Source: a virus. Taken from it: DNA of 64,000 bases. The notes under the pieces were generated by a model that had not been told where the DNA came from, did no database searches, and saw only the letters and a program-made list of their open reading frames with translations. The DNA lies in IMG/VR virus record IMGVR_UViG_3300042934_000426, positions 32,001 through 96,000 of that record; one strand, given 5' to 3'. The position numbers and the translations under genes were made by a program. Positions 1 to 64,000 of this stretch are shown piece by piece; the first letter of the stretch is position 1; each line of letters begins with the position of its first letter.

Positions 1-1383
1 CTGATTGTCTTCGGTTAGGTATTCGGTCGCTTCCGTAGGCGCGTCGCCTTTGGCTAGAGCTAAGTCCATTCGAAGCTCCCCACCCGCTCCGAAAAGGTTA
101 TCAGCGTTTAAAGAGGTGTCTTCGACTTCTTCGTCCGTTTCGATGGTGAAAGGGATGTCAGCTAGGAATTTCGTGTAGTCTAGCGCGCCCATTTCTACTA
201 GGGTAATGAACCCGTTATAATCAATGCCCGCTGGTACTTTGCGGTTATCCACCACAACTTCCCCGTTATCGTCTTCGAAGACCCATTTGTTTTCTTCAGG
301 TAGGGCTTCGACTGGCTTTACCGCTCTACCACCGTGTACTTTGCTCCAACAATGGTCGTAGAATTCACAGTAGGTTGGTTTGCTTGTCTTATGACCCCAG
401 CTACACGGGAATCCGTCAGGCTTATCGGCACAGCGTTCAGGGAATAGTTGGGCGATAGTTGCCTGGTCGCCTTCGGCTTCCGCTTTTTCCAGCGCTTCTT
501 TGATTGCCCATAGACGGCTGATTCGTGGTACAGCGCCTTCGATAGCTTCACCACCACCGAAGAATCGTTCGCTAGACACCATCACTCGAACGATATCACT
601 CGCTGGCTTGCCGTGTAAGTCTTCTTCGAAGGTGTACTCTTCGCCTTCGTGCATATCCTTCCACACGATTTGAACTTCTACCGTGTCATTGTTGTCTTTG
701 GATTCGATAAAGATAGAGCCATAAGGCGTATTGTGCATGTACATGTAGAACATGATTTGGTCGATATACCCGCCAATGTTGCTAACGTCACCTTTGTCCT
801 TGATAGCCTTGAAGCCCCATGGGTTCATCGTCTTAATGTCTGCTACCATGGTAATCGGTACATAGTCTTCAGCGATATTTCCCTCTTCGTCGAAGATACC
901 AATGCTATTTGCATAAGCTGGGTCTAGCTCTACGTCAATTTCCCATTGTTCGGTTTCTTCGTTGTACGTCGACCCTACCGTGACCATGTTTAACGCGTGA
1001 GCTCTAACGATATTCATATCAAGCAAGCCGTCATAATGACCCGCCCATTCCCACGGGAATTGAGCTAAGTATTCGTCATCCTTCGAAGACAGGCGTTCCT
1101 CCATGGAGATTAGGACACCCATTTGCTCCCAGGCTGTTTGGTATCGGTCATGAACAAAGTCCCCGTTTTCTAGCTGGCGAAGGTTCTGCGCTGACTTCGA
1201 TTGTTTCGGTAAGTTGTGAGCGAAAAATCCGTAAATGATTTTGCGGTCTTCCATTCCCATTTCCGAAGCTCGGAAGTAGTTCTTCGCTCCTGTGATTCCT
1301 TTCTTATCGGTGTATTGTGCTTTCACGTTTTCGTTGTGTTCCCGCTTTGCGACTTGGAAAACATCCATAGCTTTTGATAACAT
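1..1383 (-). CDS. Cas4/RecB-like PD-(D/E)XK exonuclease, 3' end outside the window
   Basis: Not in the ORF track (no stop in window). Hand translation from ATG 1383 (RBS AGGAGCTGG) gives YFRASEMG..RK, GDFVH, GHYDG, ADIKT, YIDQIMFY, and a C-terminal Cys cluster RC..PCSW..YCEFYDHCW. Confidence 0.75.
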   Translation of the reverse strand, partial: MLSKAMDVFQVAKREHNENVKAQYTDKKGITGAKNYFRASEMGMEDRKIIYGFFAHNLPKQSKSAQNLRQLENGDFVHDRYQTAWEQMGVLISMEERLSSKDDEYLAQFPWEWAGHYDGLLDMNIVRAHALNMVTVGSTYNEETEQWEIDVELDPAYANSIGIFDEEGNIAEDYVPITMVADIKTMNPWGFKAIKDKGDVSNIGGYIDQIMFYMYMHNTPYGSIFIESKDNNDTVEVQIVWKDMHEGEEYTFEEDLHGKPASDIVRVMVSSERFFGGGEAIEGAVPRISRLWAIKEALEKAEAEGDQATIAQLFPERCADKPDGFPCSWGHKTSKPTYCEFYDHCWSKVHGGRAVKPVEALPEENKWVFEDDNGEVVVDNRKVPAGIDYNGFITLVEMGALDYTKFLADIPFTIETDEEVEDTSLNADNLFGAGGELRMDLALAKGDAPTEATEYLTEDNQ

Positions 1384-1610
1384 TATTCCCCAGCTCCTTC
1401 AGTATCTTCTTCTTTGGTTTCTTTTACGTCATATACGTCTACGTCGTCTAGTTGGTCTGTGCTATCTAACCAATTTCGCCAATCCATAGCGTTCTCAATG
1501 GCTTCATTTTGCTTACGCTCGGATAGAGCGTCGAATTTCTCTTCGGTCATATCTAGCTCCACTTCAAAGTTCCCACGAAGGGTTATGCTACCTGACACTT
1601 TAATACCCAT
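1383..1610 (-). CDS. small acidic hypothetical protein
   Basis: ORF; start reassigned to ATG 1610 after RBS GGGAGCTGG. Confidence 0.6.
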   Translation of the reverse strand: MGIKVSGSITLRGNFEVELDMTEEKFDALSERKQNEAIENAMDWRNWLDSTDQLDDVDVYDVKETKEEDTEGAGE

Positions 1611-1657
1611 GTTTACCAGCTCCCTCTCTTTATTCCGTACGACTTGGTACGTTTTTA

Positions 1658-1686
1658 ATGGTATCATTATGTTTTGCATTTGTCAA
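1658..1686 (-). promoter_or_regulatory. sigmaA-type promoter
   Basis: TTGACA-17 bp-TACCAT with upstream TG. Confidence 0.55.
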
Positions 1687-1721
1687 CAACTTTATACAAG
1701 TGTGAACAAGTTAGTTTAAGG

Positions 1722-1746
1722 AAAAAGCGGGTGGTTAAACCCGCTT
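1722..1746 (-). terminator. rho-independent terminator after dUTPase
   Basis: AAGCGGG/CCCGCTT stem followed by a T-run on the minus strand. Confidence 0.6.
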
Positions 1747-1753
1747 CGGAATA

Positions 1754-2341
1754 CTACTTGTTGGTAGAACCTGAAGCCCCACGCTCCATTCCAGCTCTTC
1801 CAGCGTTCTCGAATCGTAGGATAGGGAGTAGGACGATTTGACCTAAACGCTCGAATCGATTAATATAAACGTCCTCTTTTGTATAGTTATAGAACATAAA
1901 GCCAATGTCCCCGTCATTGTCTTCGTTTCCGTAGTAATCACTTTCCACGACCCCTACCCCATTAGCTAGAAATAATCCTTTTTTCTTCGGAATACTAGAA
2001 CGAATGAATGGGAATAAGCCTTCCTCTTCGCCATTGAATTTCGCCTTGATACCTGTCGGTACGCTTTTGATTTGCCCAGGTGCGATAACAACCTCTTCGG
2101 AAGCGAAGCAATCCGCTCCGACCGCCTTCGGTGTCATATAAGTTGGTACAATTACCACGTCAGCCCCGAATAACTCTTCAACTGTTCCCTGTGCTACGGC
2201 TTCTTCGTATGCCCAATAGTCGACCATAATTTTACCTTCGACGGCTTCTAAGTAGCGTGTCATATCGCTTGTGTGTCCGAATATTGCTTGTTCTAGTCTT
2301 TCTTTTTGCTCTTCGTTGTACTGATTCATTTCTTTAAACAT
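1754..2341 (-). CDS. dut: trimeric dUTPase with N-terminal extension
   Basis: Motifs AVGADC, VPTGIK, IRSS, GVVESDYYG, GQIVL, RGASGST; start at ATG 2341 after RBS. Confidence 0.9.
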   Translation of the reverse strand: MFKEMNQYNEEQKERLEQAIFGHTSDMTRYLEAVEGKIMVDYWAYEEAVAQGTVEELFGADVVIVPTYMTPKAVGADCFASEEVVIAPGQIKSVPTGIKAKFNGEEEGLFPFIRSSIPKKKGLFLANGVGVVESDYYGNEDNDGDIGFMFYNYTKEDVYINRFERLGQIVLLPILRFENAGRAGMERGASGSTNK

Positions 2342-2346
2342 TTCTC

Positions 2347-2419
2347 CCAGCTCCTTCAATAGAATAGGGACGGTTTCCCGTCCCTTATTAGTATACATAC
2401 GTTGTTCATTATTGTCTAC
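2347..2419 (-). promoter_or_regulatory. promoter-hairpin-RBS cassette, copy 1
   Basis: GTAGA-N13-CGTATGTAT, then GC hairpin AGGGACGG-GAAA-CCGTCCCT, then AGGAGCTGG. Confidence 0.7.
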
Positions 2420-2425
2420 GGTTGT

Positions 2426-5116
2426 CTAGCGTGTAGGGCAATGACCGCCCTGACATTCTACCATTTCAGCTAATGACATTTCATTATCTTCGAAGTCCCC
2501 TGAAGCCATTAATAGGTTGTAAAGGTCATGTGGCTTCATATGGATTTTCTTGTTCATAGCTTCCCATGTTTCCTTCGAAGTCGGTTCATACGGTGCTTGG
2601 ATATACCCATGACCACTATAAGGCAATAATGAAGTCGATTTGATTCTCATACGGTATTGCTCTAGTTGGTGCTTAATTTTCGGCTTTTCGTCTTCATGGA
2701 ACGTGATGGTGCATGAGACCATGTTGTCAGCCCAATACACGCACATTAAGCTCTGTAAGGCGAATTGCTCTTCGATGGTTACTTCATCCGCACTTCGGAA
2801 GTCTGCATAGTCAGCCGTCGGTGCTTTGAACGGAAATTCGATGACGTGACTTCCTGGATTTTGACTGGCTGGCTCTGTGTAGTACCCAGCTAATTCCACT
2901 AGCTTCAGAAGCGGGTCATTCGATTGTACACGAATTCGACGCTTTCCGTATCGGAAGTAGTGACTGTGAATCCCTGGTGAGATTCCTGATAGCAACGCTA
3001 CTGTCCCTGACGGTTTATTAGTCGTGTCACGTACCGAAGGATTGACCTGGTAGCCCAACGCCTGTGTAAGAAGGGCTGAATATTCAATATCGGACTGAAT
3101 CACTAGCTTATACATGTAGTCGATTTCTTGTAAGAGCTCCTGATTGTACATAGGCTCTAGGCGATATTTATCTTGGTAGCCTTCTTTTGCCAGCTTCCGA
3201 ACCAGGTACTTTCTGCGACGGTTCTCACGGTGACCCTTCTTAATGTGTAGGTCGTTCATAAATACGTAAAGGTCAGCCAGTTTCTCTTCCGAAGGTGGGG
3301 TATTTCCTCTCACAATGTCTACAGGTTTTACGTCTTGGTCTTTCCATAGCTGGTCATGCCATTCGTCTATATCGTAGACTTTCCAGCCTGTGATAGCTCC
3401 TTTACCGAATTTCAGTAACACCCAATCCATCACGCCTGATAAAGATACTCCGATACGACGGTTACGGTTGATGACTTGTGCTGATTGCTCCCAATCGTAC
3501 TTCGTGAACGTGACCCGCTTCGTTAAGTGAACCATGAACGGGATAACCTCTTCGTGCTTGATTCCTAGTCGGTGAGCGACAGGCAAGTGGTACTCGACCA
3601 GGTTACAAGGCTCGCCTGATTCTAGCGGGATTTCCATACAAGGATTACCGCCACGGGCTTTGTCGGTCTTCGCTTTGTAGCCGTCTATGATTCTTCCGAA
3701 GTTCTGCGCTAGGAATCGGTTAAAGATTCCAGGTTCTCCATTCGCTTCGATAGCGGGTGCAATGAACCCGAAGTCGTAGTTTCGTGGGTCGTCAATCACG
3801 ATACTGTTATTCGAAGCCCAACGGTGGTTATTTTGCGCCCATGCCGTTTCGTAGTCTTCGGAAGCTTGCTCGAATGAATACCCTTCAACCATGAGCTCTT
3901 CAACGGTCTTCAGCACAGGTTCGAATTTCTTCGTCTTTTCGTTCTCTACCCATTCCTTCACCACATGACCGACTAATAAGTAGTTTTTCATGTTGGTAAA
4001 CTTCTTGTCTTTATTGCTTCCTAGCGCAACTTCAGCCGTTCTTCTCACGTTACCCGCTACCGTACAACGTCCAGCGTGGTTGTGTAGGTCTGTCGCTAGC
4101 ACCGAATCAATATACCCACCGACACGTTCGTTTAGCTTCTTATTAGCATACCAAAGTAATTCTAATAGGGGAGCACTTCCTGAAGCCGTGCCACCGAAGC
4201 CTTTGATAGGTTTCCCACTTTCACGAATGTCGGATAGGTCAAATTCAATGTCCACCGTCTTTTCGTGTCTGAAGTGCTCGTCGATGGTAACTCCGTAAGA
4301 TTCAGCCCAGCCTTCTCGCTCGTCACCAATCATCATATAGTGACCCCTAGGCACAACAACGCCTGTATTGAAGCTAGCCCCTAATTCAATCGCTTTCGCC
4401 TTGACCTCTTCGAAGTCAGGATGGTCTTCCCGAAGTCGGAAGTAAAGATTCACCTTGTTCCGAACCATCGGAATTTCAGCCACGACGTCTTCTTCAGCGG
4501 AGAAGCCGACGCCCCCGCCCTTCATCGATTGGTCGAATAAGAACACGAACGGGTACGAAGGAAGCTTTTCATTCGGGTCAATTTCCCAATTCTTAAAGAT
4601 TTGGTTGCTTTCCCCGTAGTGCCACGGTCTTGTCTCGACGAACCAGCAATTATTGAAAGCGTCCCCTGTGCGCTCCGCAAACGGTGTACCTGAAATCCAT
4701 AGCCCACGTCCAGGTGGCGTAAAGACTAGATTCCATATGAGGCGGTAGAGCTTCTGTCCGTATTCCTGGGTAACCACAGGGTCGTCAGCTAAGATATTCA
4801 AGTTCCCTTCGACTACTCTTCGAACCACTTCTGTCCACTCTTCTGTACGAATCGAAGTACCATCGGCACGCTCTACCCGTCTAGCATAGGTACGCTTAAA
4901 GGTAAACCAGCCCAGCTCGCCCCAGCCTGGCTCTTTGCCGACGAATTCAGCGATAAAATCATCGTCCAGCTTGAACGGTGCTTTGACCAATACATTTCTG
5001 ACCTTCCGAAGGTCGATTGTTGCATACTCATTGTTGGCTACTTTTTGTGCTACTTGTGCTTCGAAGGGAAGGATATTCCCGATACCCATCGTATTAATGG
5101 TTTGCACGTTTGACAT
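2426..5116 (-). CDS. nrdJ: class II (B12-dependent) monomeric ribonucleotide reductase
   Basis: PPGRGLW, NNCWF, GNVRRTA, NPCME, CNLVE, KPSGTV and C-terminal CQGGHCP redox pair. Confidence 0.93.
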   Translation of the reverse strand: MSNVQTINTMGIGNILPFEAQVAQKVANNEYATIDLRKVRNVLVKAPFKLDDDFIAEFVGKEPGWGELGWFTFKRTYARRVERADGTSIRTEEWTEVVRRVVEGNLNILADDPVVTQEYGQKLYRLIWNLVFTPPGRGLWISGTPFAERTGDAFNNCWFVETRPWHYGESNQIFKNWEIDPNEKLPSYPFVFLFDQSMKGGGVGFSAEEDVVAEIPMVRNKVNLYFRLREDHPDFEEVKAKAIELGASFNTGVVVPRGHYMMIGDEREGWAESYGVTIDEHFRHEKTVDIEFDLSDIRESGKPIKGFGGTASGSAPLLELLWYANKKLNERVGGYIDSVLATDLHNHAGRCTVAGNVRRTAEVALGSNKDKKFTNMKNYLLVGHVVKEWVENEKTKKFEPVLKTVEELMVEGYSFEQASEDYETAWAQNNHRWASNNSIVIDDPRNYDFGFIAPAIEANGEPGIFNRFLAQNFGRIIDGYKAKTDKARGGNPCMEIPLESGEPCNLVEYHLPVAHRLGIKHEEVIPFMVHLTKRVTFTKYDWEQSAQVINRNRRIGVSLSGVMDWVLLKFGKGAITGWKVYDIDEWHDQLWKDQDVKPVDIVRGNTPPSEEKLADLYVFMNDLHIKKGHRENRRRKYLVRKLAKEGYQDKYRLEPMYNQELLQEIDYMYKLVIQSDIEYSALLTQALGYQVNPSVRDTTNKPSGTVALLSGISPGIHSHYFRYGKRRIRVQSNDPLLKLVELAGYYTEPASQNPGSHVIEFPFKAPTADYADFRSADEVTIEEQFALQSLMCVYWADNMVSCTITFHEDEKPKIKHQLEQYRMRIKSTSLLPYSGHGYIQAPYEPTSKETWEAMNKKIHMKPHDLYNLLMASGDFEDNEMSLAEMVECQGGHCPTR

Positions 5117-5121
5117 GTTTA

Positions 5122-5634
5122 CTACCCCCTGATTAGTGTTTGATATTTAGCGAGCCCGATTCCCACGCTGTCCCATACGTGTGTAGGCTGTCGTTTAAGA
5201 AGCTCTTCAGCTTCGGGAAGTGTATGTTTCACATAATGCTTCACTTGCTCTTTATTCGCCCGCATAACCCCTAGCGCGAGTTTTTTCCATTCGCCATTCT
5301 CATAGACAGTGACTTCGTAGCCCATGCTACGCCCGACCATGCGAAGGTGCTCTGTCAACCATGCCATTTCTTTATAGGTCTTTCCGACGGCTTTTCCTTG
5401 TTCGGTAAAGTCCTCAATGACGACGTGTTCGGGCTTAATGACCGATATAAGCTGACGCATATTGCCTCCGATAATATCAATCCTCTGTCGAACATCCCCG
5501 TCTGCCTTCGAAGTTCGAATGACCCCGAAATGTCTTGTCATTCCTACGGTTTTCCCCTCATAAAGAATAGAGGCGTAGCCACAATTCTCGGTGCCTGGGT
5601 CGAAAGCTAGTATTCGATTCATTCGGTCTTTCAT
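5122..5634 (-). CDS. ruvC: RuvC-like Holliday junction resolvase
   Basis: ILAFDPGT..CGY, VVIED, ANKEQV, H.WDSVGIG. Confidence 0.85.
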   Translation of the reverse strand: MKDRMNRILAFDPGTENCGYASILYEGKTVGMTRHFGVIRTSKADGDVRQRIDIIGGNMRQLISVIKPEHVVIEDFTEQGKAVGKTYKEMAWLTEHLRMVGRSMGYEVTVYENGEWKKLALGVMRANKEQVKHYVKHTLPEAEELLKRQPTHVWDSVGIGLAKYQTLIRG

Positions 5635-5651
5635 GTAACCAGCCCCTCACT

Positions 5652-5712
5652 TGTCGAACCTTGTCGAATATGTTATGATAAAGTCACCAGCCTAGGCTGG
5701 GCTTTTGTCGAA
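5652..5712. promoter_or_regulatory. three TGTCGAA (Spo0A-box-like) sites
   Basis: TGTCGAA at 5652, 5662 and 5706 in the tmk-ruvC intergenic region. Confidence 0.5.
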
Positions 5713-5790
5713 AACTTCTTTGTTTAGTTTATAAATATTTTGGTCATACTAGGGATAAGCTAGCATATCCTAGGTAGTGAAGCGAAGGCG

Positions 5791-6426: not shown

Positions 6427-6466
6427 TCCTCATGACCTCACTTTCGTTTTCTCATTTCCTGGATAC

Positions 6467-7066
6467 CTAATATACATACCCCGAAAAATATTCTCTACGG
6501 ACTTTCGTTAATTTCCGATAAATTAAGTCGTACTGCTTTGCTGTAGGCTTCGGTAGCTCTTCCACATAGTCCGTCATGTGCGCGATTCGCCAGTCAATCG
6601 GTGGCATATTGGCATATGCCACTCGCTCCATTCCCAGGTATTCGCTCTTCCAGTCATAGCTTCGATGAATGTCAGGGAAATACGTGTCGCCTTCGAAGGC
6701 TTCGCCTACGGTGGTGATATAGAACTCTTCAATATACGGAAGGAACGCTTTATAGACTTCGGAACCACCTATTACCCATACGTCTTTTTCAGGGTGTCTA
6801 TTCGCTATCGCTAACACAGGTTCTATACGGTCGAACGTAGGTTCATAGTAGCTTATAGGTAGTCGCTGACGAGATAGTACAACATTATGTCGATTCGGAA
6901 GTGGTTCACATCCCATGCTCTCGAAGGTTTTTCGTCCCATGACTACGGTATGCCCTTCGGTTAGACTTCGGAAGTGCTTACCATCCAGGGGCTTATCGCC
7001 CCATGGCATTTGTCCATTCTTTCCCATGACCCCGTTGGCTCCAATGCACACAATCGCTTTTATCAT
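6467..7066 (-). CDS. folA: dihydrofolate reductase
   Basis: [43 protein letters not shown]. Confidence 0.93.
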
Positions 7067-7974
7067 GAGCTTTGTTCCCCTTTAATCGCTGGGTATGGGT
7101 CATAGCCTTCTAACTCGAAGTCGCTTCGGGTGAAGCCGTTAATGTCCCGAACGGATGGGTTTAGGTGCATAGTCGGTAAAGGCTTCGGCTCACGGCTGAT
7201 TTGCTCCTTGATTTGGTCTAGGTGGTTGTTATAGATATGAGCGTCCCCGAAGGTGTGGATGAACTCACCAGGCTTCAGTCCGACTACCTGGGCAATCATC
7301 ATCGTAAGCAAGCTATACGAAGCGATATTGTACGGAACGCCTAGGAAAATGTCGGCACTTCGCTGGTAAAGCTGGCAATCAAGATATCCGTCACGTACGT
7401 AAAATTGGAAGAGTACGTGACACGGTGGTAACGCCATATCGTCCAGCTCGCCAGGATTCCAGGCACTTACAAGGTGTCTTCGTCCATCAGGGTCAGCTAC
7501 TAATAATACTATGACCCTAGCAATTTGGTCGATTGTACCCCTATAACCTAGTTTATCGGCAATCGCCCAGCTACGCCATTGGTGACCATAAATATTACCT
7601 AGATTAGCCATCCTAGGGAGGAATTTCGGGTCGAATTCTTTCACCTTCGCCACGAATTCCTTATACGTAAGCCCTTCGTATTCACCTTTGTAGGTTCGTT
7701 GGTAGTACTTGTAAGCGTCCCGATTCCATATATGAATCCCCTTGTCGACTAACGGCTTAATATTGGTTTCGCCACGTAAGAACCATAGAAGCTCTTCGAT
7801 AATGCCGTCTAAACGAACTCCGCTCATATCCTTCGTTGTCATGAGCGGGAAGCCTTCTTGAAGATTGAATCTCATTTGATAACCGAAGACGCTAATTGTC
7901 CCCGTTCCTGTACGGTCGCCCTTCGACAACCCGTTTGCTAGCACATGCTGGCATAATTCTAAGTATTGTTTCAT
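7063..7974 (-). CDS. thyA: thymidylate synthase
   Basis: [39 protein letters not shown]; start is 7974 or 7980. Confidence 0.96.
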
Positions 7975-8064
7975 ACTCATTTCACCCTTTCGGTCTTTTG
8001 ATTGTACCATGGTTTTTGTTCTTCTACATATGGTGTCTTCGGAAGTCAGACTTGTTAAAATTAC

Positions 8065-8862
8065 TCAAAATGTAGGAGCTAACAAATGGTCTTTGCCTAG
8101 TGCTTGAGCATGCCTTTTAATCCAATCTTTAGACTTATGGAAATACCCCTCTTCGGTGTCTTTTTCGAAACCGATAAAATTCCTATTCGTATTTAAACAG
8201 GCTATACCTATCGTCCCCGCACCACTTACATTATCTAAAATTAAAGACTTTCTACCTTCGGAAGAGTAGGTTTTGATAATTTTTTCATAGAGCTCAATCG
8301 GCTTTTGGGTAGGGTGAAATTTCCTAGCGTCATCATTATTCATAACAGGTATATCCCATACGCTTGTAGGGTAGCGGTCGGTTTGCCCACCACCACTAAC
8401 ACCTTGTTTTGTTTTTCCGTAGTTTGTGCCATCGCTTGTATTTTTTGTGTAACTATTAACAGGGCTATGCCCCGTTGTTTTTTGTGGATTATACACAGGT
8501 AGCTTTTTATAAAATACTAGAATAGCTTCATGGCTTCGAAGGGGCATTTTATTCGCATTTAAAAAGCCTGTGCTTTTATTTTTTTGCCATATAATATCGT
8601 AGCGAAATAATTTAGGATTACTCATAATGAGCATAGACGCAAATGGTTGAGTAGCTGTAAAAACAATTACTCCGTCGTCTTTTATAATCCTCTCGTACTG
8701 CTCCCAAAGTGGTTCAAAGGGGATAATAATATCCCATTTATTCTGCGAAGTCACTCCATAGGGTAAGTCTGCGATAACCAAATCAACAGTCTTATCATCA
8801 ATTAAGCACATACCTTTAGAACCGATACAGTCTTCATTATAAATATTATTTATCTCTAGCAT
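8065..8862 (-). CDS. N4-C/N6-A DNA methyltransferase (beta class)
   Basis: Catalytic DLPY motif before the SAM-binding LDNVSGAGT, plus HPTQKP; visibly AT-richer than neighbours. Confidence 0.88.
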   Translation of the reverse strand: MLEINNIYNEDCIGSKGMCLIDDKTVDLVIADLPYGVTSQNKWDIIIPFEPLWEQYERIIKDDGVIVFTATQPFASMLIMSNPKLFRYDIIWQKNKSTGFLNANKMPLRSHEAILVFYKKLPVYNPQKTTGHSPVNSYTKNTSDGTNYGKTKQGVSGGGQTDRYPTSVWDIPVMNNDDARKFHPTQKPIELYEKIIKTYSSEGRKSLILDNVSGAGTIGIACLNTNRNFIGFEKDTEEGYFHKSKDWIKRHAQALGKDHLLAPTF

Positions 8863-8914
8863 TACTACCAGCTCCTTTTCTACCCAACTACTAAAATTGT
8901 AGGTTTTGATTCTA

Positions 8915-9619
8915 CTATACCTTTTCGAAGATGATTAAAGCGGAACCGATTGACCGTTCTCTGCCGTCGCTGACTTCGTTAACAATCGTCATGCCTTTAT
9001 CCGTGCGAACCATCATTTCACTAGAACCGCCACCGTCCGCATTAATCGCATTGACACAGCCTAACGCCTTCATAATTTCCGCTGATTCTTTCCCCGTCAC
9101 ACCTGTACTATCCCCGCTTCGACCCTCTACGACAACCAGGACGATATTGCTGTTTGCTTTCTGACCAATAAGCGTTCTCGGATTACGCGTCTTAAAGTGT
9201 GCATAGCGATTCGCCCCTAAAAAGACCGCTTCCCCGTCTACTAATACCGAATAGGACAATGACCCACCCCAAAGAACTTTCTCTTTTAATTCAGGAACCT
9301 GTTTAGCATTTAGCTGGGTAACGACGAAGCGCCCTTTCTTATCCAGGTAACATTCCGCGTTATCTCCGTTCGGATTCCCTTTGGCTTCCCCGTCGAACAT
9401 AACTAGCCCGTTATGCTCCGCGTTGCCTCCAAAATAGCCCAGGTTAATTTTTGCAACTTCTCTGAAGCCCTTTTTCTCCATAGCGGTATGACGAAGAACG
9501 GATAGGCGTTCCAGCTTTCCTGCCGTTCCGAAGCTTATAGCTGACGGATTTTTAATCGGGTTAAATTCATAGACATACACATCACTATTAAACAATCGTT
9601 TCTTATAAAATTTCGGCAT
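8915..9619 (-). CDS. phosphodiester glycosidase (NAGPA-family) domain protein
   Basis: INLGYF, NPRTLIG, VVEGR, A.NADGGGSS, ERSIGSAL. Confidence 0.75.
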   Translation of the reverse strand: MPKFYKKRLFNSDVYVYEFNPIKNPSAISFGTAGKLERLSVLRHTAMEKKGFREVAKINLGYFGGNAEHNGLVMFDGEAKGNPNGDNAECYLDKKGRFVVTQLNAKQVPELKEKVLWGGSLSYSVLVDGEAVFLGANRYAHFKTRNPRTLIGQKANSNIVLVVVEGRSGDSTGVTGKESAEIMKALGCVNAINADGGGSSEMMVRTDKGMTIVNEVSDGRERSIGSALIIFEKV

Positions 9620-23624: not shown

Positions 23625-23865
23625 TATTTTCAGCTCCTTCGATTATTTTCGGTGACCGTCCTGTTAAGGTCAGCACCCATTCCAGGAAGTCAGGGTCACC
23701 AGGAACTAGGTCAAACCGTTCCTGTACCTTTTTCATTTCCTTTGTGTAGGTTTCACGGTCGATTTCACATAGCTCTAGTTGGCTCGGTATTTCTCCGAAT
23801 AACTCCATCATAAAGACTTCGAAGGCAACTGTCACTCTACTTTTTTCCTCTGTCATAGTCTTCAT
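23611..23865 (-). CDS. hypothetical protein
   Basis: ORF with ATGA coupling. Confidence 0.55.
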   Translation of the reverse strand: MKTMTEEKSRVTVAFEVFMMELFGEIPSQLELCEIDRETYTKEMKKVQERFDLVPGDPDFLEWVLTLTGRSPKIIEGAENNEPT

Positions 23866-24584
23866 TCCTTCCCGAATATACCGTTATCAACGGCAATGTA
23901 AAAATCCTTCGTACTCATAGAACATCCACAGCATTTACGATAACCCGTCCAGGCATGGTAGTGAAAAGGTTGCCAGTCTACGCAATACCCACAATAAAGG
24001 GCTTCTTTATTGCTTGGTTTTGCTTCCACTAGGTTCCGAAGTTTAGCTTCGTCTAGGCGCATTTGAAGCTTCTTCGGTAGAACGCTAGGCTTTAGTAAGG
24101 TGATGAATCGGTCTTCGGAAGCCCCTTTATTCAGGCGCTTGAAAAGGTCTTGCTTCGCCTTGTATGACAGCTCCCTCATTTGGAATACGCTTACTTGCTC
24201 TTCATGCTTCACAGGTTCGTCGGGCGACGTCGTTCTTGTATGAGCTGGTCTAGGTTCGGCTGGTGGATTTGGGCGTTCGCTGGTAACAATAGGCTTCGAA
24301 GCTTCTGTGCTCTTTCTTGCTTCAGGCTTTTGCTTTGGTTCTTGTTTGATAGCTTGCTTGACTTCTTCCTTCTTGCCATTTGCTTTCTTCCCTTCAGTGG
24401 TCTTCGGAAGCTTAACTGGCGGTGCTGGGCGTGCTGGTGTCTTTTTAGTTGCCACGGTAGCGGGTGTTGCGGTCTTCTTTGATTGCACTTCGGAAGTCTT
24501 CGTAGTAGTCGGTTGAGCTGGTGTAGCCGTAGTCCCAGGTACTCTTTTCTTCTTTGCGTTTTTCGTTGCGATTGTCATTGTCAT
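23862..24584 (-). CDS. Lys/Pro/Thr-rich protein with C-terminal zinc finger
   Basis: CGYC...CCGC; start probably MTMTIATK after a GGGGG RBS. Confidence 0.6.
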   Translation of the reverse strand: MTMTIATKNAKKKRVPGTTATPAQPTTTKTSEVQSKKTATPATVATKKTPARPAPPVKLPKTTEGKKANGKKEEVKQAIKQEPKQKPEARKSTEASKPIVTSERPNPPAEPRPAHTRTTSPDEPVKHEEQVSVFQMRELSYKAKQDLFKRLNKGASEDRFITLLKPSVLPKKLQMRLDEAKLRNLVEAKPSNKEALYCGYCVDWQPFHYHAWTGYRKCCGCSMSTKDFYIAVDNGIFGKE

Positions 24585-24744
24585 TTCCCCCATTACATGT
24601 AATCTGATAACTGTTATATGAATCTCGTATGTGTATAGCTGTGTGCTGGTTATGTGAAGGGCTTCGCTCGACAAAAGGAGCGAAGACCCATGACACACAT
24701 TTCAAAAATATCCATCCTACGACTATCCAGAATAGGACTATCAT
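24445..24744 (-). CDS. possible small membrane protein
   Basis: N-terminal hydrophobic helix, ATGA coupling, but overlaps the downstream gene. Confidence 0.35.
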   Translation of the reverse strand: MIVLFWIVVGWIFLKCVSWVFAPFVERSPSHNQHTAIHIRDSYNSYQITCNGGNDNDNRNEKRKEEKSTWDYGYTSSTDYYEDFRSAIKEDRNTRYRGN

Positions 24745-28464: not shown

Positions 28465-28543
28465 CCAGCTCCTAGTTTTTATTTTGGGGAGCTTCGGAAG
28501 CTCCCTCATACTTACCATACATACGGCTTTTATTTTCCTCTAC
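28465..28543 (-). promoter_or_regulatory. promoter-hairpin-RBS cassette, copy 4
   Basis: GTAGA-N13-CGTATGTATGGTAAG, GGGAGCTT/AAGCTCCC hairpin, AGGAGCTGG. Confidence 0.75.
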
Positions 28544-28557
28544 GGTGCTTCGGAAGC

Positions 28558-54761: not shown

Positions 54762-54790
54762 GCGTGTATACCCCCTTCTTGGATTGTCGG

Positions 54791-56404: not shown

Positions 56405-56433
56405 AATTTCACCTCACTTTATGGCTTCATATG

Positions 56434-56521: not shown

Positions 56522-56607
56522 GATATGGACTTTGTTGCCCTTTTTTATTCACTTTTGATTACTTTTGTTCAACTACTTTCGAGTTTACCATTAACTTCCG
56601 AAGAGCG

Positions 56608-56823: not shown

Positions 56824-56871
56824 AAAGCTCCCCCTTTCCTGATTATAACAGTAATTTTCTGACTTCGGAAG

Positions 56872-57147: not shown

Positions 57148-57182
57148 AATAAGAATAACCCCCTATATAAGAGATATTTTTC

Positions 57183-57376
57183 ATGGGAAACCTTCTATTA
57201 CGTACGAGTTGGTACGTAGTAATGGTGTCACAGAGGTTTTGATTTTCAAAAATTATTTTTTTATTTTTCTTCACCTGAAGGATAAAAATAAAAAATTTTT
57301 CTCTTAGACTTCGAACGTCTGCATGCCACTATTACGTATCAACTCGTACGTAATAGAGGGTTTCCCAAAATTTTTT
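57183..57376 (-). repeat. element B: inverted copy of element A
   Basis: Reverse complement of 57183-57263 nearly equals 26917-26998; sites at 57196-57221 and 57330-57355. Confidence 0.9.
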
Positions 57377-57378
57377 AA

Positions 57379-57407
57379 GAAAAAGAGGGCTAAAAACCCT
57401 CTTTTTC
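57379..57407. terminator. terminator after the giant gene
   Basis: AAAAAGAGGG/CCCTCTTTTT inverted repeat. Confidence 0.7.
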
Positions 57408-57427
57408 AGAATTGTTTCTTTATCTTA

Positions 57428-60400
57428 CTAAAGCATTATAACCAGTTTTAGGGACTTCGCTACCGCTTTCCCTTGGGTTGTTCCACTTCCGACTTTTAAA
57501 TCACTTGTCTTCGGTGTTTTCACCTTCGGAAGTGTTTGGTTTTGCGCCCCTTTCGGCTTGGCACCCGCTTTACGCTTGGCGCTTCGTGAAAACCCTCTTC
57601 CTGTCATAGCACGGGCTGAAGCGGTATCACTCAACTTGTCTTGCTTCTCTAGTTGCTTCGTTGAATTCACCACATTCGAAATATTCTTCATTTTCGTATC
57701 CTGTGCGTCAAACATGAAGTCTTCGATGGTTCCAGGCATATGAAGCGATTCGACACGGGTTGTGTTGGCTCTGCCTACTGCCTTATGGGACTTCCAGCTA
57801 TCCGAACGTCTGACACGGGCGGTAAACTGTGCCATTTTCTGTGGGTTCCAGTCTTGGTCGAAGTGTATCATCATGTGAGCGTTTCCGAAGTCAACGCCTT
57901 CTTTACCCGCTGGTGATACCGTCGTTGCCCATAGGTGACCTTGGTTGTTCACGTAGTCCGCTCCGCTATCAGCCTTCGAACCACGGAAGCCTACCTTCGT
58001 ATCTTCACGGTCTGTCGCTTCCCCTGTGAACTGTCCATGACCGAACTTGTCGCCTACCTTCGAAGCCCACTTATGCAATTCAGGATGTCCCGTTTCAGGG
58101 TGTGCCAGGTCTTTTAGTACTCCGTCCACAATGTCCGTTCCGAAAGTAGTGTAAGAAGACTTCACCACTAGCTTCGGCATGATTTCAGGCTTACCAGCCT
58201 TACGTCTTTCGTTGTTCTCATGAGCTACTTCATCCAGGTACTTCGATACACGTTCCTTCAGGTAATCAGCCTTCGGGTTGTTGTGGTGAAGTGGAGCTAG
58301 AAGCTTTGGTGACCCGTCTTCGTTTTTCAGGTAACCGCCTTTGCCATCGCTTTCATAATAACGCTTGTGACCGTCCCCGTCTACTTCGAAAGGAATCGGC
58401 TCGCTCTTATCCTTTTTGTCCCCGCTTGTAGTCTGCTGTACTCCTGTGGCTTCGCTATCGAAGGCATTGGAACCAGGGACATACATTTTGCTCGCTAGTG
58501 GGGCGTTTAGGTACTTCTGAAGCTTCTGCATAGCGGTTAAATAGTTTTGGCTCTTCTTCCCGCTGGCATTATCGAAGCCCGTTGTAGAAGCTTGCTGAAG
58601 TTCCTGAAGCTTCGACTTCGGAAGGTACTTTTCCTGAAGCTGGCTGTACTCGTCGTACATTTTTTGCATGCTCGGCTTCATATTCGTCGGCTTGAACGTA
58701 CGAACTTCGTACTCTTCCCCGCTCTTCGCTTTGGCTGTGACTGTGCCTTCGTCGAAGTCGGTGATACTATGCTTCGTTCCATAGTAGTCGTTGGTCGCAT
58801 GGTCACGGCTTCGGTCTACTAAGTTACCTACGAAGTCATTTTGTGGGTTCGGATTGTCAGGCGTTCCACTCGCTCCTGATAAGTGTGGGAAGTGGATTTT
58901 CGAACCGTCGTTAAACTTTACATCTTCCCCGCCACGGAATTGAACGAAGTTGGCTAGAATGTCCCCTAGCTTACCCGCCTTCGCTGGGTTGACCCCGACG
59001 ATTTTCCCGTTTCGGTCTTTAATCATATACTCATTGGTGAATTCCTGACGTGAGCCTAGCTCATGTTTCCCGCCTGAAATGGTGTCAATTAAGCTGTGAA
59101 TCTCACGGGCGTCATTTTCCATTGGCGTTCCTGATAAGCCCCATACGTTTTTGAACTTGTCGGTCGCTTCGGCTAGAGACTTCCCGCGCTTCCCGCCCTG
59201 GTTCTTAAAGGCGTGTACTTCGTCAATCGTAATGTTATCGTACAATCCCGAAGCTGTTAACGCGTCTTTGTTTCTCATAAAGGTGTCATAGCTCATGATA
59301 TGGAAGTCATGGTCAGAATCGTGGTGAGCGTCTAGGTTGTTTAGCAAGTCCTTCGTATGAACGACTTCGTGCTCTTTACCCGCTTGACCCCACAGTTTCT
59401 TACCGTCTTCACCCTTCGTATGACCGCTGAAAGACGAAGACCCCCCGATAAACGCACCCTTCATTGAAGTGTGGTCGGTGATTTCCTTACCCCAATCGGA
59501 CATAATCCCCTTCGGAGCCACAATGAGCGTTTTCTTCGGCTTTTGTCCCTTAGATAATTGCTTCGCCTTATAATGGGCGTGAGCGACAACCCCTAGAATG
59601 GTCTTACCTGTTCCCATTCCGTGACCCGCAATACCACGCTTACGCTCGACTAGGTGAGCTACCCCTTGTAGCTGTGTGCCGTACAATCCTTGCTTTTCAT
59701 CCATAAGGAAGCTCTTCGGATTGAATTGAGCCTTGTAGTGGTCATCGAAGCTTCCGCGCTTCGTATTGACTTGTGACGGCTGGTAGTTTTCCTGGTAATA
59801 TTTACGTCCTTCGGGACTGTCAATATCACGGAATACTCGGTCTTTACTTCGGAAGTAGTCGGCTAGGTGCTCCTGTGCGTCATGTGCCATCGAGATACCG
59901 CTACCTTCACGGGAAAGTATGTCCCGAAGTTCTTCGAACTTATTGGTGGACACTTTCGCTATACCGTCCTTACTTACTGCAACCCCTTCGCTCGCTACTA
60001 CGTCCCGAAGGTGTTCAGGAACGTGCAAGTCTAGGTCTTTGGTGTAACTCGACTTGAATTGCTTCAATAACCCTTTGCCCGCCTTCGAGCGTCCTAAGAC
60101 CTTCTCTAAGCGTTTCATTTGGCTATCGTTTAATTCCAGGTCTTTCTTCAGGTTGCCTTCTTTATCGAAGGCGGTGGTGTTGATTTTGGCTTTCTTTAGC
60201 GCTTCGGCAAATAAGGTTTTCGCCTTTTCTGCTCTAGCTGTATCACGTTTGCCTTCCGAAGCTGGTTTGAATAGGTCATTCGTGTTCATACGGTGTGTAC
60301 CCGTTTGACCCACTTTCAATACGGCATTACCGCTATTGGATAAGGTACGCCCTTTTTCCTTCGCTGGTTTCAGCTCATTCTTATTGAATAGCCCGACAAG

Positions 60401-63400
60401 CTGACCGTCGCTGTTGATAACCTGGAAAGCTCCGTTTTCCGTTTCCTGAGTAATCTTACCCTTTTTCCATGTGTTTCCGTCTTGGTACATGACCGCATTG
60501 CCTTGTTTCATTTTGACGTCATTCACATTGGTATGTTTTCGGTCGACTAATTTCCCATTTTTGAATAAAGCTTTGATAGGTTCGCCTGTCGAAGGGTCTA
60601 CTGCTCCCTTCGGAATATCGCGACTATCAATGTATCGATATCCCTTATAGGTTCCTGAAGCCACTACAGGAGCGCCTTTCCCATCGTATAGTAGCTCAAT
60701 ATGGTGCCCCAATGCGTCCCCAATGTGGACGTCACTTCCCGCATGAGCCGTTACCCAGGCACGATTACCGACGGCATTTTTCATGACTTCGTGAAGGTCT
60801 TCAGCCGTATTCACGTCTTTATGTTGCTTCAGAAGTCTAGCCATGATAGGGTCAGTGATTTTCCCGCTTCCATCCACTTCGATAACGTTTTGGGTGCCGT
60901 CTTCGTTTTCTTGGGCAAAGGTCTTACGTCCCGTCTTCGCGTCGTGGTCAACTAGCTTGAAGTTCTTGTGCGTCATTTCGTCTTGCATACCTAGTCTTGT
61001 TTGGCTTCGGAAGCTCTTGGCTTCGTCTTCGGATAGCTCCTTGAACATCGGGCTTGTGCCGTCTTTGTTAGCGTCCGCTAGTAACTTTTCCGAAGAGTTG
61101 ATATTCGTCCCCAGGTACTTGTTTAGCTTTGACCAGCTATGCGCGATATCGTCAGTTGCAAAGTGCTCTCCTGTTTCAGGGTCGAAGGCTTCGGAAATGT
61201 ATGATGTATAGTTATTTTTCTTGTCGTCCATACGGTGAGCGACTTGAACAACCATACTTTTCCCTGTCGTTGGGTTACCAATTTGGTAGTGCCCTTCAGG
61301 TATCATACGCTTCGTCATTTCTTCTCCCGCACGGGTCATTTCCTTTTGTCCGATTAGGCTAGCCAGCTCGTCCGTTGATAGGTCTTTCTTTGCCATTTCC
61401 TGTATGGTTGAACTCATACCATCTTGGCTTCGAAGTGCCATAGAGTTAGCGGTTTTCGAGATAGCTTCGAAGTCGGCTTTGTGCTCCTTAAAGAAGTTTT
61501 CAGCGTCCTTTTTGGCTGGCTTCGTAATGCCGTTTTCTTCTAGGTATTGCTTGTATGCTTCCACTTTGTCCTGAAGGAAATTGGCGACGTCTTCCGTTAG
61601 GATTTTATGCCCTACGAAGCGTTTTCGCTCTTCGTCACCCATTGAATCGTAGGCTTCTTTTTCTTCGTCGGATAAAGTGTGATACATGCCGATACCTTTA
61701 TGGCTATGTTCCTTCGCTTTTTGCTTAATTCCGCTTACGTGGTCTTTCAGGTTCTCTAAGTCCTCTTCGAAGGCTTGAATTCCCATATCTAAGCGGTCTT
61801 TGTCTTCGTCCCCGTGGTTGAATTCCAGCTCGCCTGTTTCGTGGTTGATTTTCGCCCCGAATTTGTTCATGTGCATATCCTTCGCACGGGCGGTCTTCTT
61901 CGAATCGTCTTTAATCTTTGCCCACTCTTCATGAGCTTTGGCTTCCTTGTTCTTACGGTGCTCGGCTAGTTCTTCCTCTTCATGGTGGAATTCTAGTCCT
62001 TCTTCCTGGTCAGTGATACCATGGTTTTTCGCTTGTTCCTCTCGGTGGCTAGAGTTTTTAGAATCGTACTTGATTTCCCCATCACCTGTGATAAGGATTT
62101 TTTTACCGCCCCAGCTAATCCACGCTGACCCAGGATTCTTGACGAGAAGTTCTTCAGACCAGGTAAGTGCCCCTTGTTTCTGCTTTACCCGTTCCTGTTG
62201 CGTCTTCGCCATTCCCTGAATCTTAGCCTTGTTCTTTTTTGCGTATTCGCTTGCCTTTGCATTGGTGGAGCTATTCGAAGCCCCTTTATGGGCAAACATC
62301 GACTTTTGAAGCTCTTCGAATTCACCGAACGCCTTACGAAGCTCTTCGGAAGCTGGTAATGTGTGCTCGACGATTCGTGCACTTACCTGTCCTTCGTCAT
62401 TAACGATATAGGCTCCGACGTACTCAGTAGGTGATAGAGATTTCTTAATATCGAATAACGTTTCACCTGTTGCTACTCTTGTAAACTTCTGACGAAGGAT
62501 ACTCGCGTCAAGACCCCAGCTATTAAGGGACTTAATCAGGTTCAATTCGTACCATGACTTCAAAATCATATTGAAGACGAAGCTCTTTAGCATAGCGAGC
62601 TGTTGAATGGCTGGATGATTGTTCGCATGAGCCTGAGCGATTTTCCCCATAGCGCTTCGAACCCACTTGTCTACCCATTTTTCTCCATAGCTTGTTCCAT
62701 GCACAGCATTATAGCGGTCAGCGATTTCCTGATTCGTTAAGTTCGCTTGGTTACGCTTTTCGGAAGGCTGGGAGAACTTATACGTCATCAGTTTAATTTC
62801 ATCGTCACTTAATCCCATATCAGCCATAGCTTTCGGAAGTGTGCCTTCTAGTTCCTTCTGACGCTCTTTACGCTCATACACTTCTTCAGGGGAACGCCCT
62901 TCGTCCTGGATATTGCTTGTAATCGTTACGCTACCTTCTTCCGAAGCACGGTTCTTGTCGGCTGATACCGTCTTCTGCTGGCTTGCATAGGCACGAAGCT
63001 GACGAACACGTTCGGCTGGGTCGGTTTCTTGTTTGTTAGTCGCCACCCACTCGCTTTTCTTATCATCCCAATAAGGAGCCTTGACGATTGGCGCTTCCTT
63101 GAATTCCTTCGAATTCTTCATAAGATGTGCGCCTAGTTCTTCGTCCGAAGGCGTACGTCCTAGCTCATGAGATAGCTGAGTGTGGGCGTTGTTCATATCC
63201 ACATTTGCCATACGAACGGCATGCGGTAATGGGATATCGTTTAAGAAGTCATACACGTCGTTTTTCAGCTTATCTTTGATACGTTGAGCTACATGTGCCC
63301 CCATATCGGCTGAAGGGTGCTGAGTGCCCGCCATGACGTTGTGGAGGGTTTCGAACATCGTCGCACGCGCTGACTGAAGCATATCACCATAGAAGCCTGT

Positions 63401-64000
63401 TTCCTGGTTGATGACGTTCTCGCTTCGGGTCGCTTTGTTCCCGATTCGGTTGATTTGCGAAGCTAGGTTCATACCTAGGGCACGACCACGCTTTAATACT
63501 AGGTGACGAGCAAACTTGTCATTCGCGTCTGTAATTTCTCCCGCTAACTTCTTAATGTCTTCGGCATTACGCTTTTCAGGTGGTAAGCTCATAAGCTTTT
63601 GTACCTTTGATGATTCCCACATTTCCGTAATGGAAGCATTATCCTTCGTAGCCGTTGCTTCGTTGAAATCCTGGACTTCTTGGTTCGCTTTATGGTTATC
63701 TTCGGTTTTGGTTAGGCGTTTAACAGGGTCAAGCTCTACGCGCTTAATCGCTGGTGCTTCTAAGTCACGCTTCTTTTTCGCTTGTCGAATCGCTTTGTTT
63801 TCAGCCGTCGCCTTCTTTTTCATATCCTTGACCTTTGCGGTTTGCGCTTTCTTCCGCTCTTTGGTTGTCTTGTTGACTTCCTTCATCACCTGTTTAACGG
63901 TAGGCTTTTTTGCTTCCGAAGCTGTTTTCGCCTTCTTTGCTGGTGCTTTCGTTGTCGGGTCAGCGATTACCTTTGCTTTACCTGTACCGTTTGCCTTCGT
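57428..64000 (-). CDS. giant polyvalent protein with sigma-70-like and SNF2 helicase domains; N-terminus outside the window
   Basis: Frame stays open to 64000; sigma-like GDMLQSA, IPLP, LSHELGRTPSDEEL, LSDDE, LTNQEIA; SNF2 GMGTGKT, DEVH, SGTPMEN, EGVDF, WNP..AQ..ARVRR. Confidence 0.85.
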   Translation of the reverse strand, partial: TKANGTGKAKVIADPTTKAPAKKAKTASEAKKPTVKQVMKEVNKTTKERKKAQTAKVKDMKKKATAENKAIRQAKKKRDLEAPAIKRVELDPVKRLTKTEDNHKANQEVQDFNEATATKDNASITEMWESSKVQKLMSLPPEKRNAEDIKKLAGEITDANDKFARHLVLKRGRALGMNLASQINRIGNKATRSENVINQETGFYGDMLQSARATMFETLHNVMAGTQHPSADMGAHVAQRIKDKLKNDVYDFLNDIPLPHAVRMANVDMNNAHTQLSHELGRTPSDEELGAHLMKNSKEFKEAPIVKAPYWDDKKSEWVATNKQETDPAERVRQLRAYASQQKTVSADKNRASEEGSVTITSNIQDEGRSPEEVYERKERQKELEGTLPKAMADMGLSDDEIKLMTYKFSQPSEKRNQANLTNQEIADRYNAVHGTSYGEKWVDKWVRSAMGKIAQAHANNHPAIQQLAMLKSFVFNMILKSWYELNLIKSLNSWGLDASILRQKFTRVATGETLFDIKKSLSPTEYVGAYIVNDEGQVSARIVEHTLPASEELRKAFGEFEELQKSMFAHKGASNSSTNAKASEYAKKNKAKIQGMAKTQQERVKQKQGALTWSEELLVKNPGSAWISWGGKKILITGDGEIKYDSKNSSHREEQAKNHGITDQEEGLEFHHEEEELAEHRKNKEAKAHEEWAKIKDDSKKTARAKDMHMNKFGAKINHETGELEFNHGDEDKDRLDMGIQAFEEDLENLKDHVSGIKQKAKEHSHKGIGMYHTLSDEEKEAYDSMGDEERKRFVGHKILTEDVANFLQDKVEAYKQYLEENGITKPAKKDAENFFKEHKADFEAISKTANSMALRSQDGMSSTIQEMAKKDLSTDELASLIGQKEMTRAGEEMTKRMIPEGHYQIGNPTTGKSMVVQVAHRMDDKKNNYTSYISEAFDPETGEHFATDDIAHSWSKLNKYLGTNINSSEKLLADANKDGTSPMFKELSEDEAKSFRSQTRLGMQDEMTHKNFKLVDHDAKTGRKTFAQENEDGTQNVIEVDGSGKITDPIMARLLKQHKDVNTAEDLHEVMKNAVGNRAWVTAHAGSDVHIGDALGHHIELLYDGKGAPVVASGTYKGYRYIDSRDIPKGAVDPSTGEPIKALFKNGKLVDRKHTNVNDVKMKQGNAVMYQDGNTWKKGKITQETENGAFQVINSDGQLVGLFNKNELKPAKEKGRTLSNSGNAVLKVGQTGTHRMNTNDLFKPASEGKRDTARAEKAKTLFAEALKKAKINTTAFDKEGNLKKDLELNDSQMKRLEKVLGRSKAGKGLLKQFKSSYTKDLDLHVPEHLRDVVASEGVAVSKDGIAKVSTNKFEELRDILSREGSGISMAHDAQEHLADYFRSKDRVFRDIDSPEGRKYYQENYQPSQVNTKRGSFDDHYKAQFNPKSFLMDEKQGLYGTQLQGVAHLVERKRGIAGHGMGTGKTILGVVAHAHYKAKQLSKGQKPKKTLIVAPKGIMSDWGKEITDHTSMKGAFIGGSSSFSGHTKGEDGKKLWGQAGKEHEVVHTKDLLNNLDAHHDSDHDFHIMSYDTFMRNKDALTASGLYDNITIDEVHAFKNQGGKRGKSLAEATDKFKNVWGLSGTPMENDAREIHSLIDTISGGKHELGSRQEFTNEYMIKDRNGKIVGVNPAKAGKLGDILANFVQFRGGEDVKFNDGSKIHFPHLSGASGTPDNPNPQNDFVGNLVDRSRDHATNDYYGTKHSITDFDEGTVTAKAKSGEEYEVRTFKPTNMKPSMQKMYDEYSQLQEKYLPKSKLQELQQASTTGFDNASGKKSQNYLTAMQKLQKYLNAPLASKMYVPGSNAFDSEATGVQQTTSGDKKDKSEPIPFEVDGDGHKRYYESDGKGGYLKNEDGSPKLLAPLHHNNPKADYLKERVSKYLDEVAHENNERRKAGKPEIMPKLVVKSSYTTFGTDIVDGVLKDLAHPETGHPELHKWASKVGDKFGHGQFTGEATDREDTKVGFRGSKADSGADYVNNQGHLWATTVSPAGKEGVDFGNAHMMIHFDQDWNPQKMAQFTARVRRSDSWKSHKAVGRANTTRVESLHMPGTIEDFMFDAQDTKMKNISNVVNSTKQLEKQDKLSDTASARAMTGRGFSRSAKRKAGAKPKGAQNQTLPKVKTPKTSDLKVGSGTTQGKAVAKSLKLVIML

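Follow-up and report, generated by a model that had tools for sequence, protein, structure and literature searches.

The DNA uptake sequences of Neisseria (DUS) and the uptake signal sequences of Haemophilus (USS) are words of 9-12 bp that recur about once per kb, run through coding sequence and mark DNA as 'self' to a machine that handles it. They are non-palindromic and serve natural transformation in cells, and to our knowledge no phage machine is comparable to DNA uptake. In cyanobacteria, the highly iterated palindrome HIP1 (GCGATCGC) and its alternates are palindromes over-represented 15-300x, at about one per gene (PMC4390886, PMC5861425); wherever they are abundant they are accompanied by a cognate orphan DNA methyltransferase (Elhai 2015, PMC4390886), and their distribution is periodic over a long range of 10-90 kb (Xu, Lawrence and Durand 2018, PMC5861425). 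Chi occurs far above chance, on account of the protein that reads it, in lambdoid phages that have no recombination module (Zheng et al. 2025, PMC12315714). Here we describe an iterated palindrome of a virus, CTTCGAAG and its nine-base form CTTCSGAAG (S, G or C), found throughout a stretch of 64,000 nucleotides (the window) that comprises bases 32001-96000 of the complete, 104,950-bp IMG/VR virus record IMGVR_UViG_3300042934_000426, a genome with terminal repeats that we call G000. The word CTTC(N)GAAG is here called the motif, which, as CTTCGAAG/CTTCNGAAG, is spaced every 0.5-1.2 kb in a group of ~100-kb uncultured phages. A search of the literature returned no description of such over-represented palindromes in phages, matches to the raw motif being primers.

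A first-pass annotation made from the sequence alone had named HIP1 as the closest precedent, and the resemblance holds. Like HIP1, the phage motif is iterated in at least 15-fold excess, falls in all reading frames and between genes, and keeps its sites between genomes beyond background; in both, one-base deviants lie at the outer positions and variant words differ by lineage. Unlike HIP1, the motif is viral and has no associated methyltransferase (none was detected in the motif-rich relatives G001-G003), occurs both as an 8-bp and as a 9-bp word, the preferred centre of which depends on the lineage, and stands in genomes that purge other palindromes. Its loss was also accompanied by that of a small DNA-binding gene, so that there is a candidate reader, which HIP1 lacks. 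Our preferred reading, held tentatively, is that CTTC(N0-1)GAAG is a lineage-specific iterated palindrome, kept by selection in one group of ~100-kb myoviruses as the site of a phage-encoded, symmetric-dimer protein, for which a winged-helix protein of 86 amino acids (aa) is the best candidate.

Abundance and definition of the motif

The window holds 36 copies of CTTCGAAG, 44 of CTTCGGAAG and 33 of CTTCCGAAG (77 CTTCSGAAG), with only 4 of CTTCWGAAG (W, A or T). In the whole 104,950-bp genome there are 68 CTTCGAAG, 127 CTTCSGAAG and 6 CTTCWGAAG, at 6-14 sites per 5 kb. These are the highest-enriched words of the genome, the 8-mer reaching 48x and the 9-mer ~180x the expectation from composition. 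All 15 positions listed by the first-pass annotation in the first 6 kb are exact matches, as are its six intergenic examples.

In dinucleotide-preserving shuffles of the window the 8-mer count averaged 1.31 +/- 1.19 and never exceeded 5, against the 36 observed. Coding sequence holds 66 8-mers and 113 9-mers, compared with 12 and 7.8 under a synonymous-codon shuffle, 4.6 and 1.2 under codon permutation, and 48-53 and 30-47 under a dicodon-preserving Euler shuffle. Loss of the enrichment under this last null had been named beforehand as an argument against a DNA-level signal, and the answer differs between the two lengths: the 9-mer clearly survives, at more than 10 standard deviations above the null, whereas the 8-mer lies only ~2.5-3 standard deviations above it. 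The dicodon null is, however, nearly circular, because dicodon counts already hold most of the motif. The sites occupy three reading frames and both orientations, encode dozens of different peptides and are uniformly placed along genes, and their density is 2.2/kb between genes against 1.8/kb in coding DNA, which bears out the earlier claim of frame independence and intergenic presence.

All eight specified positions are required, and spacers of two bases or more show no enrichment; the reverse arrangement GAAG..CTTC is mildly enriched only. Variants at the inner positions are near expectation, most with 0-7 copies, although CGTCGAAG, its complement CTTCGACG and CTTCGTAG reach 14-17. The full palindrome is therefore the unit, since changes at the six or seven inner positions drop the counts to near expectation. 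Variants of the outermost C or G are still 5-10x enriched (7-21 copies vs ~1.5 expected), as graded binding affinity would predict. The one-step transition neighbours CTTTGAAG and CTTCAAAG stand at expectation, without depletion. The sites had also been thought to extend often to longer palindromes, but complementary flanks occur at 51 sites against 49.5 expected, which is chance. TTCCGGAA is a different word that has TTC...GAA arms in common with CTTC(N)GAAG.

Distribution, selection and loss of the motif

No close cultured relative of G000 was found in the phage collection. We retrieved 17 IMG/VR contigs whose capsid protein is 69-80% identical, and no k-mer outranks the motif in any of them except one small clade. 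More broadly, it ranks first among over-represented words in nearly all relatives with a capsid at least 66% identical (GC 43-58%), enriched at least 58x in five relatives, and it is absent from SPO1-like relatives with capsid identity of at most 40%. In an IMG/VR scan for two close sites, dense and dispersed copies were confined to this group among the matches listed, the other matches listed being local repeats of a different kind. Two unrelated contigs (L315 and L275, GC 60%) carry a dispersed 35-bp element with two 15-bp palindromes AGACTTCSGAAGTCT and 5 bases between them, in 4-6 copies per 8-13 kb; it would form a hairpin with arms that are themselves palindromic and includes the same 9-mer, yet is a different kind of repeat.

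Table 1. Copies of the motif in G000 and five relatives (S, G or C centre; W, A or T centre)
Genome	GC	8-mers	S-centred 9-mers	W-centred 9-mers
G000 (the window's genome)	45%	68	127	6
G001	55%	12	145	16
G002	55%	3	151	40
G003	57%	5	107	27
G410	43%	3	29	50
G004 (80 kb, 83% complete)	40%	0	1	1

Over the five motif-bearing genomes, in the order of Table 1, the S:W ratios at the centre are 21:1, 9:1, 4:1, 4:1 and 0.6:1. The core word is CTTC-N-GAAG, with a centre preference that ranges from none (G410) to strongly G/C (G000), and use of the spacer-less 8-mer (68, 12, 3, 5 and 3 copies in the same genomes) increases with the preference for G/C. Centre specificity that drifts between lineages is what a co-evolving protein would predict.

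The sites are conserved between these genomes. In protein-guided alignments with G000, 27 of 114 sites are identical in place in G001 (random 9-mers, 2.8%), 17 of 93 in G002 (1.6%) and 8 of 82 in G003 (1.2%), against 0 of 83 in motif-free G004. Overall, at ~40% nucleotide divergence, 10-24% of sites are retained compared with 1-3% of random 9-mers (~9x). The same holds over short distances: the sites of G002 differ from those of a relative 1.9% apart by 8 substitutions where 21.3 are expected, two of the eight at the free centre base, and a cluster of G003 relatives has none against 5.8 expected. Sites mutate ~3x more slowly than their surroundings and are under purifying selection. Most sites nevertheless turn over between genomes, yet density stays at 0.8-1.9/kb. 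Codons under sites show 38.6% identity to motif-free G004 against a background of 51.6%, which suggests that the sites are placed in, or impose changes on, tolerant positions. Being frame-independent, intergenic, conserved across relatives and protected from substitution, the motif is a DNA-level signal under selection, as had been proposed.

Spacing is Poisson-like to slightly even (coefficient of variation 0.76-1.0), with pairs closer than 40 bp under-represented. A check of spacing periodicity, which the first-pass annotation had called for, revealed the 3-nt periodicity of codons and no helical periodicity of close pairs. GC and AT skew profiles are flat across sites in four genomes, with no step, and no motif-free region is common to the genomes. 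The median distance from sites to mosaic breakpoints is 80 bp against a null of 206 bp, for 32 breakpoints that are few and non-independent, coming from near-identical relatives. G002 and G005 (L140-L143) are near-identical, with mosaic blocks at 99.2, 98.2, 95.9 and 82.6% identity, which points to recent recombination within the group.

The motif stands out as an enriched palindrome in genomes that otherwise purge palindromes; the first-pass annotation had remarked that phages usually avoid them. GATC, CCGG and GGCC have no copy in the 104,950 bp of G000, where 19 of the 64 six-base palindromes are missing; 20 are missing from G001, 11 from G002, 4 from G003 and 15 from G004, and the sets differ between relatives. 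G004 has 0 TTCGAA, and TCGA is depleted 7-fold. Such avoidance, with differing sets, implies unmodified DNA that is exposed to the restriction systems of different hosts; a common enriched word in phages of different hosts in turn argues that the motif tracks the phage lineage, not the host. We also counted CTTCSGAAG in 401 Bacilli genomes drawn evenly from the class to which a Sporosarcina genome gave entry. It is enriched in none, the top density being 0.05/kb against 1.2/kb in the phage; the maximum is 125 copies in 7.1 Mb, and most genomes are at or below the reversed-word control. The same bias in the host, which would have spoken against a phage signal, is thus seen in none of these 401 genomes, whose class may not be that of the host.

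The G004 lineage offers a contrast. A tree of 25 concatenated core proteins pairs motif-free G004 with motif-bearing G410 as sisters, at a support of 1.0 (core identity 60.6% between the two and ~53% to the rest), and outgroup-rooted capsid and marker-gene trees agree on this pair with support of 0.97-0.98. Since the motif is present in genomes on either side of the root, its absence from the G004 lineage is a loss. G004 (L036-L039) carries dispersed non-palindromic words, AGCCTCTG (33 copies, 38x over composition) and GTAGAGGC / TGTAGAGG.

Candidate readers of the motif

Four genes are present in all five motif-bearing genomes and undetectable in G004. Two of these, encoding an exonuclease and a 124-aa protein, fall in the part missing from the G004 contig and were dropped as readers on that ground. 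The leading candidate is the 86-aa protein, whose gene lies in the head module and directly follows the genes of the portal and of a conserved 436-aa protein of that module (Table 2). It is predicted to be a winged helix (AlphaFold2, pLDDT 85.6), and the structures nearest to the model are DNA-bound winged-helix domains and regulators from bacteria or archaea, although the matches are weak (Foldseek E ~0.02, TM ~0.5). The family comprises ~20 clusters among 5.8 billion proteins, has no Pfam annotation and, in IMG/VR, is found only in contigs of this phage group.

Using the 436-aa neighbour as a marker, we examined 31 IMG/VR loci and further metagenome loci for the 86-aa gene, leaving out of the slot count two loci that end at the marker. 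The winged-helix gene is present in every motif-rich locus that reaches the slot and missing from all motif-free loci, that is, the G004 lineage and distant outgroups. In G004 the slot is taken by the gene of a 286-aa HNH endonuclease, and a profile search found no winged-helix gene elsewhere in the record, which is 83% complete. In the G410 clade, which accepts any centre base, the protein is one residue shorter immediately ahead of the predicted recognition helix, by a deletion that is confounded by phylogeny. The link between the winged-helix protein and the motif is put forward as a hypothesis, drawn from one co-loss together with co-presence and co-absence elsewhere.

A SprT-like protein with a C-terminal helix-turn-helix follows the motif in the same way (Table 2). 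Its G410 counterpart reads HQMIH where others have HEMIH and is possibly an inactive protease. From its sequence, the SprT-like protein appears to be a poor candidate beside the winged-helix protein, because the G410 copy lacks the helix-turn-helix and reads HQxxH; SprT-like proteins are, moreover, common in phages. A 278-aa zinc-ribbon protein and a 100-aa protein were rejected as readers, being absent from motif-bearing G410. The HU homolog, which the first-pass annotation had offered as a DNA-organising reader, is not supported in that role, since it occurs in all genomes compared, motif-free G004 included.

According to our preferred reading of a phage-encoded protein, each half of a putative dimer would read CTTC/GAAG on duplex DNA. 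The reader would co-evolve with its sites, so that the centre preference and the tolerance of a missing centre would drift between sublineages. Equivalence of the 8-bp and 9-bp forms might come about by extrusion of the central base pair. The base-flipping enzymes Ecl18kI, PspGI and EcoRII offer a precedent: they read CCNGG or CCWGG as CCGG, the symmetric dimer extruding the central pair. No nuclease of this type was detected in the phage, with no test aimed at such enzymes, and the analogy is one of mechanism only. The 80-200 sites per genome could together form a genome-wide tag of phage DNA that serves condensation, packaging or a protein travelling with the DNA. Since the winged-helix gene lies in the head module, its product may organise or accompany packaged DNA, or contribute to self-marking. 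A recombination or packaging role of the motif, also raised by the first-pass annotation, is possible. It is rather doubtful, though worth stating, that the 86-aa protein reads the sites as a lineage-private 'self' tag, perhaps packaged or injected with the DNA, and that takeover of its slot by the HNH gene would then have led to complete decay of the tag.

Several points weigh against the preferred reading. Binding by the 86-aa protein, a putative dimer, is what we infer from co-distribution and a predicted fold, for which the structural matches are weak. The loss was a single event, so that the motif would correlate equally with every other gene that the G004 lineage has lost, as it does with the SprT-like gene. 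The G004 record is 83% complete, and two further candidate genes fall in its missing part. The comparison with bacterial genomes covers Bacilli, which may not include the host of the phage. Continual biased repair could explain both the conservation and the constant density, and there is no nameable function that needs a site every 0.5-1 kb.

As for the wider genome, the minus strand carries ~115 of 130 genes in our own crude open reading frame calls over all 104,950 bp, and the major capsid protein is 37% identical to capsids of SPO1-like Bacillus phages. Encoded are a prohead protease, tail lysins, a family-A DNA polymerase, a primase-helicase, ribonucleotide reductase, thymidylate synthase (best matches at most 57% identical, from mixed phyla), DHFR, thymidylate kinase, dUTPase, a RuvC-like resolvase, an N6/N4 methyltransferase, the HU homolog, a Cas4-type exonuclease, a portal protein and large polyvalent proteins. 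One further word is frequent: CCAGCTCC (reverse complement GGAGCTGG) has 42 copies genome-wide, 30x over composition, and probably corresponds to the AGGAGCTGG class of ribosome-binding sites.

Table 2. Coordinates of the features discussed (positions in the window unless another frame is given)
Feature	Position	Strand	Remark
113 dispersed CTTCGAAG/CTTCSGAAG copies	273..63921		~1 per 560 bp; equal density over the rest of the genome
8-bp form CTTCGAAG	273..280		intragenic
9-bp form CTTCGGAAG, G centre on + strand	2095..2103		within the ribonucleotide reductase gene
9-bp form CTTCCGAAG, C centre on + strand	3286..3294
Intergenic copy	8037..8045		between the thymidylate synthase and methyltransferase genes
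Two intergenic copies	28492 and 28548		56 bp apart; span 28492..28556
N6_N4 methyltransferase	8065-8862		Pfam E = 1.8e-28; motif DLPY
DHFR-thymidylate synthase-N6/N4 methyltransferase-NAGPA-like block	6467-9619
SprT-like (HExxH) protein, 441 aa	25153..26478	-	C-terminal helix-turn-helix; in all motif-bearing genomes, not in the motif-free lineage
SprT-like protein of G410	L192:5288-6352		no C-terminal helix-turn-helix
Winged-helix protein, 86 aa	genome 101195-101455 (L042:5195-5455)		outside the window; minus strand; head module
HNH endonuclease of G004, 286 aa	L039:9991-10851; also L372:1292-2152		in place of the winged-helix gene
278-aa protein	23862-24698		long Pro/Ala/Lys-rich linker, C-terminal CxxC...CxxC zinc ribbon; in G000-G003 only, not G410 or G004
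Cas4/RecB-type exonuclease	1-1383		kept in all six genomes compared
Polyvalent protein, 1109 aa	L042:418-3747		LPD1 domain and weak ParB_N match; adjoins a 2302-aa SNF2 protein

Alternative explanations and significance

Of the alternatives, the one that survives best, though unlikely, is a reader encoded by the host: the motif would be either a bidirectional Chi-like signal for an AddAB/RecBCD-type nuclease or a site bound by some host protein, of the DNA-binding or defence kind, which the phage would exploit or titrate. Chi in lambdoid phages and the motif are alike in being short words accumulated far above chance, and it is the lambdoid phages without a recombination module of their own that are enriched in host Chi (PMC12315714). 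In the proteins scanned here no RecA- or RecT-like family was seen, with no targeted search made, alongside a RuvC-like resolvase and a Cas4/RecB-type exonuclease, and the sites are evenly spread over the genome. However, Chi is asymmetric, host-owned and abundant in the host chromosome, whereas the motif is palindromic, its half-sites alone are not the unit, and it reaches at most 0.05/kb in the Bacilli sampled. Known Firmicute Chi words are not consistently enriched. Furthermore, the motif persists across very different GC and restriction-avoidance profiles, and its centre specificity follows the phage lineage.

Less probable still is a neutral, function-free by-product of biased repair or gene conversion that turns near-matches into the motif, along the lines of Elhai's methylation-dependent mismatch-repair model. 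One-base deviants that gather at the two end positions, as those of HIP1 do (PMC4390886), would fit such a process, as would a density that is alike in conserved and genome-specific accessory genes and the low conservation of codons overlapped by sites. Yet three complete motif-rich genomes lack the main three methyltransferase families and none has a C5 methyltransferase; the transition neighbours CTTTGAAG and CTTCAAAG are not depleted, and strand skew shows no step across the sites. The scarcity of close pairs and the slightly even spacing, seen in two genomes, would not be expected of a blind drive, and Xu et al. have argued that such conservation reflects selection (PMC5861425).

We consider it very improbable that a DNA methyltransferase, either the phage N6/N4 enzyme or one of the host, targets the motif as an epigenetic self-mark. 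G000 does encode an N6_N4 methyltransferase and is the genome that uses the TTCGAA-containing 8-mer most, and cognate methyltransferases are associated with HIP1 (PMC4390886). However, the gene belongs to a genome-specific island: the block from DHFR to the NAGPA-like gene is nearly confined to G000 among six genomes, the sole counterpart elsewhere being a thymidylate synthase, 50% identical, in G002. The block itself carries the palindrome at normal density. The methyltransferase gene has no tblastn match in G001, G002, G003, G004 or G410, and a profile search of G001-G004 agrees; PF01555, PF02086 and PF00145 have no match in complete G001-G003, which still hold 139-194 sites each, and no C5 methyltransferase was found in G000. 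A single enzyme is not expected to read both 8-bp and 9-bp words. The proposal of the first-pass annotation that the phage methyltransferase writes a self-mark is thus not supported, the gene being specific to G000 and the motif-rich G001-G003 having no detectable methyltransferase. Nor does the motif behave as a restriction-modification target, since the site is enriched rather than avoided and the methyltransferase occurs only in G000.

Lastly, an artefact of protein or RNA constraint (favoured peptides, codon pairs or an mRNA motif) is largely refuted and hardly credible: although the dicodon-preserving shuffle keeps 48-53 of the 66 8-mers, the coding strand favours the C centre (305:225 over four genomes) and inter-site distances have a 3-nt periodicity, the sites use three frames and dozens of peptides at an intergenic density equal to the genic one, a synonymous shuffle removes 80-93% of them, the same word is enriched at 43-58% GC with different codon usage, and both 9-mer orientations occur on the mRNA strand.

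To conclude, HIP1-type palindromes have gone unexplained for three decades, partly for want of a reader or a loss contrast. The phage group described here is a compact system of ~100 kb with measurable purifying selection on the sites, dialects between sublineages and one loss that coincides with that of a DNA-binding gene. A single genome can be strongly enriched in one palindrome while it avoids restriction palindromes to an extreme degree, a point that bears on the interpretation of phage genome signatures, both for predicting hosts and for modelling restriction avoidance. If the winged-helix reading is true, an iterated palindrome would for the first time have an identified reader, and the system would be an experimentally tractable model for the 30-year-old HIP1 problem.

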